Assembly (NCBI GenBank): GCA_963826715.1
Contig: CAWGYA010000002.1
Coordinates: forward strand, 160,001 to 224,000
Direction of reading: 5' to 3'
Source: Candidatus Bathyarchaeota archaeon
GTDB taxonomy: Archaea > Thermoproteota > Bathyarchaeia > Bathyarchaeales > Bathycorpusculaceae
Length of the DNA: 64,000 nucleotides
Position 1 is the first letter of the stretch. Each line of letters begins with the position of its first letter. Shown here piece after piece: positions 32,516-42,617 of this stretch. A program made the position numbers and the translations under genes. The notes beneath the pieces are model-generated. The model searched no databases. It worked only from the letters and a program-made list of their open reading frames with translations, and was not told the origin of the DNA.

Positions 32516-33556
32516 GTGGAAGAAGCAACAATTTGGGCTCCAGCTGATGGCGACACCTTTGTCACCTCAGACGGCTTCATAATGAACACGTTTGGCTACG
32601 AGCACCCGGACGACCGCGTCTTTGCCTTTCTCAAATACATCCCCAACAAATACAAAGCGTTTTTCGATGTAGAGATGCTTTCCCGCACATGGAAATTCGG
32701 CACTAACCCTCTAACGGCCCAATTATTTCGAGCTGAGAAGCTCTATACCGCAAAAAATTACCAAACATTCATCGAGGCCTTCCGTAAAAACTTCCCAAAT
32801 TACCTCTTCTACGATGAAACACGCAGCAAAGAACTCATTACGGCACCGCTAGATAAGATTGAGCAAGTATTCGTCCCTAAAGATCGACTTGAATGGTTGG
32901 AGAACTTAGCTAATCCCGATGATCTCCAAAAGCTCTCGCTGGAAATAGTTGATTTAATTAGTAATGAATCAGGAGTCCAGCACAGGGATCTAGGCATCCA
33001 CGGTTCAATCGCCCTAAATATGCATGCTCCTGAATCAGATATTGACTTTGTCGTATACGGTACAGAGAACTTCCGTCGCGTGGAACAAACAATTTCAATC
33101 CTCGTAAATCAGGGTACATTATCTTATATTGCGGGCAATCGTATTGAAGCTGCACGCAAATTCGTGGGGAAATACAAGGGCAAAATCTGGATGTATAACG
33201 CAACCAAGAAACCTGAGGAAATCCTTGGTAAATTTGGAGATTTCACTTACACAGCGCTGGCACCTGTGCGATTCTCTGCAACTATTTGCGATGACACACA
33301 AACCATGTACCGCCCTGCAGTCTACAAAATCAATAATTACCTCCCCCAAGATGCCCAATCTGAACTTGATCTCGACAAAATCCCCCTGCAGGTTATTTCA
33401 AACATAGGTTGCTACAGAAACGTCGCACGCGATGGTCAGCAAATAAAGGTTGCAGGCACCCTTGAAAAAGTCCAGTCAACTTATGATGAAAGATGTTTCT
33501 ATCAAGTTGTGGTGGGAACTGCCACTTCGGAAGAAGAGTATATATGGCCTATTTGA
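32516..33556 (+). CDS. Pol-beta-superfamily nucleotidyltransferase (COG1665-like), paralog 1
   Basis: GYEHP N-domain; [25 protein letters not shown]-like C-terminus; GTG start inferred. Confidence 0.8.
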
Positions 33557-34617
33557 AGCTAAGAGACCGCGATTCAATCCAGTCGCCAGAAGGAATAATT
33601 TTTCGCGTCTTCGGTTACAGCCACCCATCAAACGCATATATCTGCGATGCAGAATACGCGAGTTCAGACATCTTTCACTCAACTGATCCACGGGCGCCAC
33701 GAGAAGGCAAAGGTACGCTTTTTTACAAATTTTACGGAGACGAAGGTATGAAACTAGTCTCCAAAACCTACCCGCAGTACCTCATTAACCATGATATGCT
33801 AAGGAAAAAAATCGTAGGTGTACCTAAAAATCTTGTTAAGGAATTTCGCCAACCACAACTACGACTAAAGGAACTTTTAAAACAAGGACCAACAGATCCT
33901 TTACTTGCATCTATGGAACGCGTCTTAAGCATCGTAGCATCCAGATCAGGAGTCTCCGTAGACAGTTTCGGCGTCTTCGGTTCAATGCTGCATGGCTTCC
34001 ATCACCCAAAATTTTCGGATATTGACTTTACAATTTACGGAAAAACAGAAAATCGTAAAATCGTGGATATCAACAAGCAACTATATTCTGACCCGACCTC
34101 AGGACTTGCAAATGAGTTCTCTACTGAAGACGTCATGAAAGGAAAAACCTGGCTCTTCAAAAACTTTACTGTACCAGATTTTGTGTGGCATCAACGCCGC
34201 AAATATATCTATGGTCTTTATGACGACCGAAAGCACAGCGGCAGAATCATTAAAGCCGAATTTGAACCTGTCAAAGCTTGGAACGAAATCAAAAACGAAT
34301 ACAACTCCAACTGTCACATCAAACAGTTAGGCTGGGTAAAGCTTAAAGCACAGGTGACGACGGATGCCGAAGGACCCTTTATACCCTCAATATACGGGAT
34401 TAAACCGCTAGAGGTTCTAAGTGGTTCCAAAAAAGCTCTTGAGGCGGAGCGGATTTTTAGTTACATGGAGGAATTCCGACAGCAAGTACAACGCGATGAA
34501 ACCGTAATCGTGGAGGGCACCCTCGAGGAAGTCACATCACCTACAGATAGTTATCTACAGGTTACATTGACGTATTGCCCAAGATACTACGAACAGGTTC
34601 TCAGAGCTCTACATTAG
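33544..34617 (+). CDS. Pol-beta-superfamily nucleotidyltransferase (COG1665-like), paralog 2
   Basis: [33 protein letters not shown]; overlaps paralog 1 by 13 nt. Confidence 0.8.
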
Positions 34618-35630
34618 TGGCAAAGCACCATGTAGTCGTCAGGTTTGTTACCTAAGATTAGGCGATAATGTTTGCCGCATGTCTTCTGGTTAGTTACATA
34701 CTCAATTTTTCCCTGCAACTCAACTTGTTCTCCGACGGTTGCTTGCATGCAGAATCTACCGCGGTATGAAACGACTTCTTTTATTGGGGAAAGTTCTGGA
34801 CCCTCAAGTACTTTCACGTCATCTAGCACATAAGTGCAGGGAGTAAACAGCGCTTCGGAAGCCTCAACCACTCTCGCTTGGATTTTAACGTAGCCGCTAT
34901 TTCGGTACCAAATATCGCCGTACTGAACGTTTGCTTCACTGTATTCTTTGACAAAGCGGATAAAGTAGTCAGTACCAATGTATTTACCCTGGAACGCTTT
35001 TCGCCTCTCCACTGCTTGAAAATCTTGAAAGCTCATCTTGGTATCTTTTACTCGGAAATCAAAAAGATCATGCAACTCTTGCTCTGAGTAAGGTTTGAAT
35101 CCCGACTCAGGTTCACCCAACAACCTTTGCAATGCAGCGTAGGCTTTGCGGCAATTTTCGGTGCCGTAGACGAGAGGGTCAATATCAGATTTTTCGTTTG
35201 TAAGCTCAGCCATAATTGACCCTGAGACACCAATGCTGCTCCATGGAATATCCGCCTCAGCCTTAAGCGCAGAAGCCAACTGGAGCCCTTTGTACTCTAG
35301 CAGTGTAAGGTCTTTAGCGGAGCGGAGCTCCCAGAGCTTCTCTTCAGGTCGATAATGCTCAATAATTAGGGCTATTGGAACTTCGCATAAGGTTTCGTCG
35401 AAAACGGAGTCGTAAATAACAAGGTCAGGGGCATTTTCCTGCAGGTACCTAAAGCGGTCAGAGAGACTGTAGACTTTGCCGTAGGTTGTTCCTTTCAGTT
35501 TTCGGTTGCCCTCTGGAAGGGGAATGAAGCGGGGAAATGCTATTATTTTGTCAGGGGGGTGAATTGTGCCTTTGACGTCGAAAACCACGCCGTCTCGTGT
35601 TTTAATAAGGTCTCCTTCGCGCGCCTTCAT
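34614..35630 (-). CDS. Pol-beta-superfamily nucleotidyltransferase (COG1665-like), paralog 3
   Basis: REGD..KG.IHPP; GVSGSIMAELTNEKSDIDPLVYG; VVSYRGRFC..A..GE.V...GKIE. Confidence 0.8.
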   Translation of the reverse strand: MKAREGDLIKTRDGVVFDVKGTIHPPDKIIAFPRFIPLPEGNRKLKGTTYGKVYSLSDRFRYLQENAPDLVIYDSVFDETLCEVPIALIIEHYRPEEKLWELRSAKDLTLLEYKGLQLASALKAEADIPWSSIGVSGSIMAELTNEKSDIDPLVYGTENCRKAYAALQRLLGEPESGFKPYSEQELHDLFDFRVKDTKMSFQDFQAVERRKAFQGKYIGTDYFIRFVKEYSEANVQYGDIWYRNSGYVKIQARVVEASEALFTPCTYVLDDVKVLEGPELSPIKEVVSYRGRFCMQATVGEQVELQGKIEYVTNQKTCGKHYRLILGNKPDDYMVLCH

Positions 35631-35704
35631 GATACTTCAGTCCCTGTAAGTTGCTTCAATTGTTTGTAGATTTTTACGAAACCGCTTATTTATAATCGTA
35701 ACTA

Positions 35705-41280: not shown

Positions 41281-41346
41281 CCAGATTTATTATCTTTTAC
41301 CTGATTTAAACTTAAATGTTCTATCGCTTCAATGAGCTATTAATAT

Positions 41347-41544
41347 TTAACAATAATTTATAAACGGAAAATAGTCTATAGGGAGCTGGTCTTTTGAAGG
41401 CTTGAATCGCTGCTTTTTGCAGTAAGTATAAGGCGCTGCGCGTTCGGCTGGATAATTATGTTTTCTGCCCTTATCGGTTCTTGGGGTAACTCCGCGTTTT
41501 TTGCGTGGCTTAAATCCTGAAACTTCAACATTGGAGCTAACCAA
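41347..41544 (-). CDS. Small basic, probably nucleic-acid-binding element protein
   Basis: GGAGG RBS; PRKKRG..PRTDKGRKHNYP. Confidence 0.55.
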   Translation of the reverse strand: MVSSNVEVSGFKPRKKRGVTPRTDKGRKHNYPAERAAPYTYCKKQRFKPSKDQLPIDYFPFINYC

Positions 41545-41666
41545 CTTTAGAAGCCTCCAAAAAAGAAAAAGAGGTTGGTATGCGGGTGATGTTAGAAGGG
41601 GAATGTAATTTTTTACATAACGTTAATAAGTGTTTTTTTAAAAGCTAATAGAACGGTGCATCCAAA

Positions 41667-42617
41667 TTGAGCAACGACCTCAAAAAAGCTCAGCACATAA
41701 GCCGATGCTTACAACTCGCGATTGTTCTCGAAGTTAGTGCGGACAAACCGGGTAACGTAAATTTAGTTGTGGATTTCGAAGGAACCCGAGTCGAACATTT
41801 CCTGGCTTCCTCTATCGCTGCCGGACCGTCATTTCAAGATGCTGCCTATCGAGGAATCGAGATTGCTCAGAAGAAACGCAACGTCGCTGATGCAGAACTG
41901 GGCGAACTCATCAAGTGGGGTATCGTAGACATAGACACTTGGCAACGTGGCGGCAACACACTCTTGGGCACAATTATGCTTTTTGCACCGCTAGCAGTTG
42001 CGGCAGGAATGACGCCAACCGACGAAAAATATAGAGGCGACTTTGGAATTCTAAGAAAAAATATCGATATCGTAATAAAGGCGACAACTGCCAAAGATGC
42101 GTTGGCTGTATATGAAGCTATAGACATTGCCAAGCCAAGCGGGCTCAACGGGGCACCCGACCTTAGCGTTAAAGATCAAGAATCCAAAAAGCGCTTAATT
42201 AAAGAAAAAGTAACCCTAAGAAAAGTGTTCGAGATTGCCTCTGGCTACGATGACATCTGCAGTGAATGGGTAGAGAATTTCCCTATAACATTTGATTTAG
42301 CTTATCCCTATCTGATGAATCAGCTAAAACATAAAGACCTAAACAGTGCCATTGTAAACACGTTCCTCAAAGTCCTCTCTGAGCATCCAGACACATTTAT
42401 CGCCCGAAAAGTTGGAGTGGAAAAAGCAAAAGAAGTCTCTGCTGGTGCAAAAGAAATCCTTGACCTTGGCGGAGTAGAATCCATGAATGGAAAAAAATGC
42501 TTAATCGCCTTTGACAAGAAACTCCGCAATGCAGGAAACGATTACAATCCAGGCACTACCGCGGACATAACTGCCGCGGCGTTGGCGCTTTGTACTCTAA
42601 GCGGCTACCGACCATAA
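41667..42617 (+). CDS. CitG/MdcB-family triphosphoribosyl transferase (archaeal type)
   Basis: EVSADKPGNV, NTLLG, PDTFIARK, NPGTTADITAA. Confidence 0.9.
   Translation: MSNDLKKAQHISRCLQLAIVLEVSADKPGNVNLVVDFEGTRVEHFLASSIAAGPSFQDAAYRGIEIAQKKRNVADAELGELIKWGIVDIDTWQRGGNTLLGTIMLFAPLAVAAGMTPTDEKYRGDFGILRKNIDIVIKATTAKDALAVYEAIDIAKPSGLNGAPDLSVKDQESKKRLIKEKVTLRKVFEIASGYDDICSEWVENFPITFDLAYPYLMNQLKHKDLNSAIVNTFLKVLSEHPDTFIARKVGVEKAKEVSAGAKEILDLGGVESMNGKKCLIAFDKKLRNAGNDYNPGTTADITAAALALCTLSGYRP

Follow-up and report, generated by a model that had tools for sequence, protein, structure and literature searches.

Why should an archaeon keep three diverged genes for nucleotidyltransferases (NTases) beside a gene of the CitG family? 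The question is raised by a locus of Candidatus Bathyarchaeota archaeon (assembly GCA_963826715.1), which lies in the stretch of DNA analysed here (the window: 64,000 nucleotides of contig CAWGYA010000002.1, positions 160,001 to 224,000) in a host genome of 2.64 Mb that is 96% complete. The initial annotation had cast the CitG homologue and the NTases as builders of a cofactor tail, such as that of methanopterin, the central one-carbon carrier in methanogenesis, anaerobic methane oxidation and the archaeal Wood-Ljungdahl pathway. Comparison between genomes, in the form of synteny and co-occurrence, supports this proposal: the module quite probably serves the synthesis of a methanopterin-type cofactor, and it is moderately likely that the CitG-like protein and the three NTases are enzymes that make the side chain of this cofactor, while the chemistry leading to a ribosyl-5-phosphate-hydroxyglutarate end is proposed more tentatively. 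The genes concerned are the following:

32516-33556, plus strand: NTase paralog 1 (P1); the open reading frame (ORF) opens at 32453 (TTG) and the start is uncertain; PF01909, E 8.8e-5
33544-34617, plus strand: NTase paralog 2 (P2); the ORF opens at 33493; PF01909, E 5.5e-6
34614-35630, minus strand: NTase paralog 3 (P3), of the widespread CitG-adjacent type; predicted small beta-barrel, Pol-beta NTase domain and oligonucleotide/oligosaccharide-binding (OB) fold
41667-42617, plus strand: CitG-family gene of the archaeal, methanopterin-linked type; PF01874, E 8.6e-69

P1, P2 and P3, each of 338-370 codons, had been described as strongly diverged paralogs of one architecture, and the alignment agrees. 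They share only 23-25% identity in pairs and 39 invariant columns, including the N-terminal G..HP, the GS and the S-D-I-D, and P3 used as a query in its own genome finds P2 (1.4e-18), P1 (7.9e-9) and nothing else. All three carry the hG[GS]-x9-13-D-x-[DE] motif of the Pol-beta superfamily, in the form GS-x9-10-SDID that is repeated throughout the NTase family. Because every family-wide invariant residue is retained in P1-P3, the catalytic aspartates among them, as was claimed, all three are probably active. The orthologues of P1 are mostly 337 aa long, and the start of P2 is likely to be the ATG at 33544, which gives a 13-nt overlap with the P1 stop. Against the 21-bit cut-off of Pfam NTP_transf_2 (PF01909), P1 (23.3 bits) and P2 (27.1 bits) are both above; P3 has no Pfam match, and no NCBIfam model matches P1, P2 or P3. 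At E up to 1, PF01909 matches 93 of the 103 members of the family, and the models of the classical partners of CitG and MdcB, PF03802 (CitX) and PF10620 (MdcG), are absent from the 25 families listed of the 49 that match these members. The public names of the family are just "DNA polymerase subunit beta", "nucleotidyltransferase" or "hypothetical", and one P3 homologue, P0155, leads in the Protein Atlas to archaeal "hypothetical protein" clusters only.

The CitG-family protein scores 232.7 bits against PF01874 (cut-off 27), with residues 13-308 aligned to positions 2-283 of the 284 in the profile. Its scores against the equivalog models of CitG and MdcB are of another order: 53.6 for NF002315 (cut-off 280), 37.2 for TIGR03132 (282.35), 36.6 for TIGR03125 (272.3) and 20.4 for NF007503 (477). 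These values (20-54 bits against 272-477) therefore indicate a member of the PF01874 family that is no orthologue of the characterised enzymes. The canonical partners CitD (PF06857), CitX and MdcG were each over cut-off in 0/11 genomes of the genus, that of the window included, in a search for which an E. coli control was positive for CitD and CitX and which did not include MdcC; the initial annotation had seen no acyl carrier protein gene of citrate lyase or malonate decarboxylase in the window.

Is the proximity of CitG and NTase an accident of this locus? The initial annotation had advised a look at relatives free of the mobile element that separates P3 from CitG in the window (see below), and there the linkage is kept. 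Of 24 further genomes of the genus, 20 have CitG and a P3 orthologue as divergent neighbours, at a distance of 74-119 nt (match to match) in 17 and of 0.7-1.1 kb in 3; two more genomes have the genes on different contigs, and the last two, which are 56% and 71% complete, are without one or both. In 16 genomes from other families of the order, the pair lies within 3.3 kb in 8 (two of these being co-directional and 28 nt apart), is 25 kb apart in one and on different contigs in 3, while one has no CitG match and 3 have neither gene. Further afield, among the places listed for 401 sampled genomes of the phylum Thermoproteota, CitG is followed co-directionally by an NTase gene 35-70 nt away in 15 genomes from six other families (G199, G422, G309, G238, G297, G064, G072, G057, G130, G138, G414, G402, G111, G280 and G285). 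In all three Sulfolobaceae examined (Metallosphaera cuprina, Sulfolobus sp. A20 and S. acidocaldarius SUSAZ), overlapping genes stand in the order DUF1464, NTase, CitG, metallophosphoesterase. The CitG-NTase gene pair is old and conserved.

The pair also follows methanopterin genes across genomes, as the comparison of phyletic profiles suggested at the outset has shown. In the sample of 401 genomes, a genome was counted as marker-positive if it had mptG (TIGR00144) or ftr (215 positive, 186 negative); mptG alone, which is present in 157/401, was dropped as a marker of tetrahydromethanopterin (H4MPT) on account of FTR-positive Bathyarchaeia families that are without it. The NTase family occurs in 200/215 marker-positive and 7/186 marker-negative genomes, and CitG in 188/215 and 4/186, counts which, given the kinship among genomes, are not independent and describe a pattern with no test statistic. 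Overall, NTase is found in 207 genomes and CitG in 192, with both in 185, NTase alone in 22, CitG alone in 7 and neither in 187. FTR is carried by several families of Bathyarchaeia with NTase and CitG but no mptG (f6, 4/4; f33, 4/4; f28, 7/8; f11, 8/8), and MCH and two FTR genes are present in the window genome. NTase members are present in Vulcanisaeta, Korarchaeota, Helarchaeota and Odinarchaeia as well.

The methanogens, gathered through an mcrA primer scan, give the same picture. Each of ten genomes from the Methanobacteriales, Methanomicrobiales and Methanosarcinales (Methanobacterium, Methanothermobacter, Methanobrevibacter, Methanospirillum, Methanoregula, Methanoculleus, Methanolobus, Methanosarcina, Methanothrix and Methanimicrococcus) has exactly one strong NTase match (E 3e-42 to 9e-106) and one CitG. 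In four Methanomassiliicoccales and Methanofastidiosum, which we take to be without the methanopterin pathway, NTase was found in 0/5 and CitG in 1/5 genomes, of which the completeness was not given. Linkage and co-occurrence, whose lack was to have spoken against the initial proposal, are both conserved.

The neighbours of the pair point the same way. In the complete relative G003, the order is P1, P2, P3, CitG and then MCH; in G026 and G040, a fourth NTase paralog adjoins FTR, and in G406 the order is CitG, NTase, NTase, FTR. Longer rows are found in G301 (MTD, FTR, NTase, CitG, then a gene resembling CofE, and MptN, which matches NF040720 at 3.5e-81) and in G280 (NTase, NTase, CitG, DUF447, MptA, which matches TIGR00294 at 1.5e-94, and an MptE-like gene). 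In Methanolobus, MptA (9.5e-137) is two genes away from the NTase gene, which has an M20 amidohydrolase gene on its other side. Methanolobus, Methanoregula and Methanospirillum (L167, L168, L169) have in a row a gene for a marker-9/MJ0144-like TIM barrel, CitG and DUF447, and in Methanolobus (L167:5344-8799) DUF447 is followed by the dihydromethanopterin reductase DmrX (TIGR02700, 2e-99); marker 9 and DUF447 may be further methanopterin genes. Moreover, the 505-aa protein P0267 consists of FolK/HPPK (TIGR01498, 6.6e-44) fused to an NTase with 38% identity to P3 across 331 residues, and in one bathyarchaeon (G161, L170:1850-4159) the NTase is fused to an M20 peptidase/amidohydrolase. These fusions came to light by other routes, a word-indexed protein search for longer relatives of P3 having returned none at 1e-10, a result of little weight.

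Some further neighbours may be recorded here. A gene resembling the folate-family S component of energy-coupling factor (ECF) transporters (TIGR04518, 1.1e-10, below cut-off) is in or beside the cluster in G029, G031, G406 and G040 (L018:5837-6877, L019:3299-4051, L034:5279-5989 and L024:2195-2902), and may serve the import of a pterin precursor; mptG is present in G040 and was not found, or not tested for, in G029, G031 and G406. In G029 and G031 it sits between CitG and the P3-type gene, a slot occupied in G026 by a 248-aa gene with no family match. The M20 gene beside the Methanolobus NTase is divergent from it (L162:4631-5830), and the window has an M20 gene at 4273-5631, 27 kb off. A PCC/DUF296-domain gene adjoins the NTase gene in Methanothermobacter and Methanobacterium (L160:6319-6705, L161:6340-6714) and MTD in G301 (L035:1834-2304).

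What could a CitG-like protein and an NTase do together in such a setting? The chemistry of the CitG/CitX and MdcB/MdcG systems, in which CitX and MdcG act with serine, offers a model. By analogy, the CitG-like enzyme would take the 5-triphospho-alpha-ribosyl group from ATP, setting adenine free, and attach it to the aminophenyl-ribitol-pterin intermediate at its terminal hydroxyl. The hydroxyl of (S)-2-hydroxyglutarate, or of another alcohol according to lineage, would then attack the alpha-phosphate on the Pol-beta-type NTase, and the loss of diphosphate would leave the ribose-5-phosphate diester of the finished tail. This particular sequence, a ribosyl transfer by the CitG-like enzyme and then a phosphodiester made by the NTase, is a tentative proposal to which we give somewhat less than an even chance.

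The resemblance to the two bacterial systems is that a PF01874 enzyme is encoded beside a nucleotidyltransferase-type partner, with, in those systems, a triphosphoribosyl group taken from ATP, then a hydroxyl attack on the alpha-phosphate and a loss of diphosphate. The differences are that CitD, CitX and MdcG are missing from the genus, that sequence comparison links the NTases to neither PF03802 nor PF10620, that the archaeal partner has three domains, one of them an OB fold, that the archaeal CitG homologue falls far below the equivalog cut-offs, and that the genes around it are those of methanopterin and not of a lyase or decarboxylase. A more distant analogy is with CofC and CofD of coenzyme F420, where a side chain is likewise joined by a phosphodiester from a nucleotide-activated intermediate; there the folds are unrelated and there is no ribosyl transfer, so that the likeness is one of analogy only.

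A further parallel is found in bacterial methylotrophs, whose cofactor is without the phosphate-hydroxyglutarate end. Mutants in their orf7, in the work of Chistoserdova et al. of 2005, are said to have been without the cofactor. The methylotroph H4MPT island runs mch-orf5-orf7-fae and onwards in the available part of one paper (PMC3615186), and in the available part of another (PMC11533326) the Methylomonas genes after mch are annotated as an alpha-L-glutamate ligase and a triphosphoribosyl-dephospho-CoA synthase. Because these annotations stand at the same mch-orf5-orf7 positions, orf7 is, as far as these excerpts go, CitG-like, and the methylotrophs too have a CitG-family gene within methanopterin gene islands. 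Unlike the archaeal loci, the islands have no NTase partner among the genes listed in the excerpts, the methylotroph genomes themselves being outside the search; the missing phosphate-hydroxyglutarate end would fit this absence.

To our knowledge, the enzymes that attach the second ribose and the phosphate-linked hydroxyglutarate of methanopterin have never been assigned. A literature search to which subscription papers and supplements were external found no paper that names these enzymes, that gives the NTases any function, or that ties the NTases or the CitG homologue of archaea to a step of methanopterin synthesis. In the parts available, the link between CitG or NTase and methanopterin is printed in gene tables only (PMC11533326, PMC7386643, PMC3615186), and the excerpts of PMC3087415 and PMC6787355 have nothing on the tail steps. 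The CitG-like/NTase pair would provide concrete, single-copy candidate genes in tractable organisms (Methanosarcina, Methanothermobacter, Sulfolobus acidocaldarius) and makes an old gap in the methanopterin pathway directly testable. NTase and CitG could also add a class of targets for inhibitors of methane formation.

The structure predicted for P3 bears on the type of substrate. The AlphaFold model, made from the alignment of 103 family sequences, has a predicted local distance difference test score (pLDDT) of 96.9 and a predicted template-modelling score (pTM) of 0.92. Residues ~242-338 form an OB fold, as the initial annotation had expected of the C-terminus, with Z 8-8.9 to the MCM N-domain, SSB and RPA in an exhaustive aligner. 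Residues 107-232 resemble Pol-beta-type domains with middling Z values of 7.8 (3au2; root-mean-square deviation 2.9 over 89 aligned residues), 7.2 (4p4m) and 7.1 (8oef). Residues 1-105, modelled alone (pLDDT 94), form a small beta-barrel with no significant structural relative, the best Z being 4.5 to small barrels of the KOW/Sm/SH3-like kind. Foldseek with the same model returned OB-fold rows only, at E 7e-3 or worse; a sequence search of the PDB gave nothing for P3 and matches at chance level for P2 and the family profile. No MdcG or CitX chain is among the PDB structural matches listed, a list that does not exclude families outside it. The family shares with the Pol-beta superfamily (PF01909: Pol X, terminal uridylyltransferases, aminoglycoside NTases) the G-S...D-x-D motif and the fold of its middle domain, and differs from it in having the extra N-terminal barrel and C-terminal OB fold and in the lack of a dedicated Pfam or NCBIfam model. 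In P3 numbering, H24, G134, S138, D149 and D151 are invariant in the 103-sequence alignment, and P25, Y267, G307 and E310 nearly so. Since these residues are drawn from all three domains (H24; D149 and D151; Y267; E310), they suggest one compact active site of the small-molecule type.

Several observations weigh against the assignment of CitG and the NTases to the methanopterin side chain. The kinship among genomes makes the co-occurrence counts overstate the evidence, and 15 marker-positive genomes are without NTase and 27 without CitG. In family f35, mptG is present in 5/5 genomes with CitG in 0/5 and NTase in 2/5 (weak matches), in f10 NTase is in 2/2 and CitG in 0/2, and in the window genome, for all its completeness, mptG was not found (best E 2.4e-5). 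A single NTase is enough for methanogens, which leaves the three copies here unexplained. The classical in vitro pathway of R. H. White reportedly uses phosphoribosyl pyrophosphate (PRPP), not ATP, as the donor of the second ribose. At E up to 0.01, neither PF03802 nor PF10620 matches P1-P3, and CoaBC lies within ~3 kb of the pair in 3/3 Sulfolobaceae, which also fits an acceptor of the coenzyme A (CoA) type. The modelled OB fold and Pol X/TUT7-like core would also fit a nucleic-acid substrate, and in Methanoregula and Methanospirillum the NTase gene overlaps a TsaC/YrdC-like gene; the OB fold and one tRNA-gene neighbour barely keep an RNA role alive. Finally, Methanofastidiosum has CitG without NTase, and Haloferax, a control and, according to the part of PMC8305020 available, a folate user, matches CitG.

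One alternative is that the proteins act in methanopterin-type metabolism but do not make the ribose-phosphate-hydroxyglutarate tail: they might adenylylate another intermediate, salvage or remodel imported pterin precursors, or add lineage-specific groups. FTR is present in 52 of the 59 NTase-positive genomes that are without mptG, a FolT-like ECF S component stands between CitG and NTase in G029 and G031, and the M20 amidohydrolase is fused to the NTase in G161 and adjoins it in Methanolobus, all of which this explanation would accommodate, as it would the existence of two old NTase clades (see below) where the tail has a single phosphodiester. However, the chemistry of the CitG family yields exactly the alpha-ribosyl-5-phosphate unit of the tail, and the single copy in 10/10 methanogens fits one conserved core step. 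We regard this alternative as rather unlikely.

Another possibility keeps the tail and reverses the order of events. The NTase would first adenylylate the alcohol of the tail, be it 2-hydroxyglutarate or some other hydroxy acid, and the CitG-like enzyme would use the adenylylated alcohol as a ribosyl donor, so that adenine would be displaced and the whole ribose-5-phosphate-alcohol tail passed to the pterin-ribitol in one glycosyl transfer. Chemically, this order is as plausible as one that begins with CitG; as an account of the locus, we consider it unlikely. If it were true, the two NTase clades together with P1 and P2 would stand for different tail alcohols, and hence for undescribed methanopterin variants in uncultured archaea.

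A third explanation is the canonical CitG/CitX logic, in which 2'-(5''-phosphoribosyl)-3'-dephospho-CoA would be attached to a carrier protein that has escaped recognition in archaea. Membership of PF01874 is in keeping with this, as are an NTase partner that adjoins CitG in the way that MdcG adjoins MdcB and the CoaBC gene close to all three Sulfolobaceae pairs. The explanation is nonetheless improbable given the 0/11 for each of CitD, CitX and MdcG, the scores far under every equivalog cut-off, and a distribution and neighbourhood that track the genes of methanopterin and not those of lyases or decarboxylases.

It is more improbable still that the NTases are RNA enzymes, acting at the 3' ends of tRNA or other RNA, with an OB fold that binds RNA and a link to CitG through some ribosyl-phosphate modification of RNA. 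The idea draws on the OB fold (Z 8-8.9 to SSB, RPA and domains of the aminoacyl-tRNA synthetase anticodon-binding type), on the Pol X/TUT7-like core, on the TsaC-like neighbour in two Methanomicrobiales and on the KOW/Sm-like N-terminal barrel, for which the Z of 4.5 is not significant. Against it, NTase was not found in 179 of the 186 marker-negative Thermoproteota, nor in the 5/5 methanogens presumed to be methanopterin-free, though all of these have tRNAs; an NTase is fused to FolK; and the near-invariant residues come from all three domains, as would befit a compact small-molecule site.

A role in toxin-antitoxin or defence systems (MNT-like antitoxins or CD-NTase-like signalling), to which the Pol-beta NTase motif and the mobile and restriction-modification genes nearby in the window might have pointed, is disfavoured as highly improbable, for P1-P3 are three-domain proteins of ~340 aa (338-357 aa, unlike the small, single-domain antitoxins of HEPN/MNT pairs) with no HEPN family or effector partner among the neighbours scanned, the family is present in single copy and conserved by vertical descent all the way from Sulfolobaceae to methanogens, and the mobile element was inserted separately and recently. 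Nothing was found that points to the antidote role raised in the initial annotation.

Assignment to the methanopterin side chain, which we prefer, leaves the question of the three copies, beside which the history of the family may be set. A quick maximum-likelihood tree of 44 NTase members, with SH-aLRT support only, has a P3-type clade of 14 rows (support 99), which unites most of the CitG-adjacent genes with members from Korarchaeota and Odinarchaeia, and a second group (support 93, below the 95 at which nodes of the tree are starred), which contains the FTR-adjacent fourth paralogs and the genes of Sulfolobaceae, Vulcanisaeta and Helarchaeota. The methanogen NTases form a clade with support 97. 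P1 and P2 (100 each) are clades on long stems, seen solely in this Bathyarchaeia order; the genus of the window has P1, P2 and P3, and the second old clade is unrepresented in it. Methanogens and Sulfolobaceae have one copy, and the window genome has P3 together with P1 and P2, which diverged fast and are strongly conserved. Because the orthologues of P1 (74-85% identity) are more conserved than those of P3 (66-71%), the sequences indicate that the divergent copies are under strong constraint. P1-P3 may work together as a heteromer, or they may differ in the tail group that they install, and the expansion hints at cofactor variants as yet unknown in Bathyarchaeia. Relatives of P1 and P3 (P0345, P0383, P0391 and P0086; 68-81%) also occur on short contigs of metagenome-assembled genomes with bacterial labels (Ignavibacteria, Deferrimicrobiaceae, Binatia, Verrucomicrobiae); misbinning, and not gene transfer, is the probable cause.

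In the window, the pair is interrupted by the element mentioned above:

35671-41609, no strand: mobile element of 5,939 nt, delimited by empty-site contigs and flanked by the 7-nt direct repeat TTTTTAC
35705-36985, minus strand: tyrosine recombinase (integrase) with an N-terminal zinc ribbon; PF00589, 2.6e-7
36945-39455, minus strand: primase-helicase with D5_N, DUF5906 and a P4-type primase C-terminus; TIGR01613, 1.6e-51
40834-41280, minus strand: Doc/Fic-family toxin-like gene; TIGR01550, 4.5e-10

The element also carries small ORFs between P3 and CitG, and no recognisable antitoxin gene is among those that adjoin the Doc/Fic-family gene. Contigs from four soil-metagenome runs of one study were aligned over 34000-43000, and some of them join 35670 straight to 41610, skipping the 5,939 nt, with 7 letters that fit both sides. 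These empty-site contigs span 3,139 nt in run X1, with no differing letters, and 388 nt in run X3; where the contigs of runs X2-X4 leave parts of the element uncovered, this was not counted as absence. The repeat copies, at 35671-35677 and 41611-41617, are shorter than the length limit of the general repeat search and were read from the sequence; no tRNA flanks the element. Because metagenome contigs carry the empty site, the element is a true insertion of which the empty site is still in the population. It is recent and still polymorphic, and lies in the divergent promoter region, with all four genes intact. The extent first proposed for the element (35.67-41.62 kb) was right within ~10 nt, and the head-to-head arrangement of P3 and citG that its removal was predicted to restore across ~100 bp has a spacer of ~97 nt, compared with 88 nt in G003.

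Upstream of P1, a stretch of low GC (0.32-0.37) extends over 26054-32408 and contains a tRNA-Ala gene (26054-26131), a DpnII/MboI-like endonuclease (27154-27765), a MjaI-type endonuclease (29702-30280) and an N4/N6 DNA methylase (30277-31389). In G003, the genes upstream of P1 are those of a flavin reductase and a Trp/Tyr-tRNA synthetase; since the counterparts of these lie at 59885-61787 in the window, the locus upstream of P1 is rearranged, possibly by a second island.

Elsewhere in the window, at 62133-63334, a gene for the archaeoflavoprotein AfpA (TIGR02699, 213 bits against a cut-off of 192) stands beside a gene resembling FMN reductase; the methylotroph H4MPT island includes the row orf19-orf20-afpA-orf21-orf22, according to the available part of PMC3615186. 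Malic enzyme is encoded by two adjacent ORFs, one for the N-terminal domain (57498-58085) and one for the NAD-binding domain (56702-57460), which represent either a split gene or a frameshift, and two paralogous genes for tRNA-intron endonuclease are located at 16501-17055 and 46782-47336.

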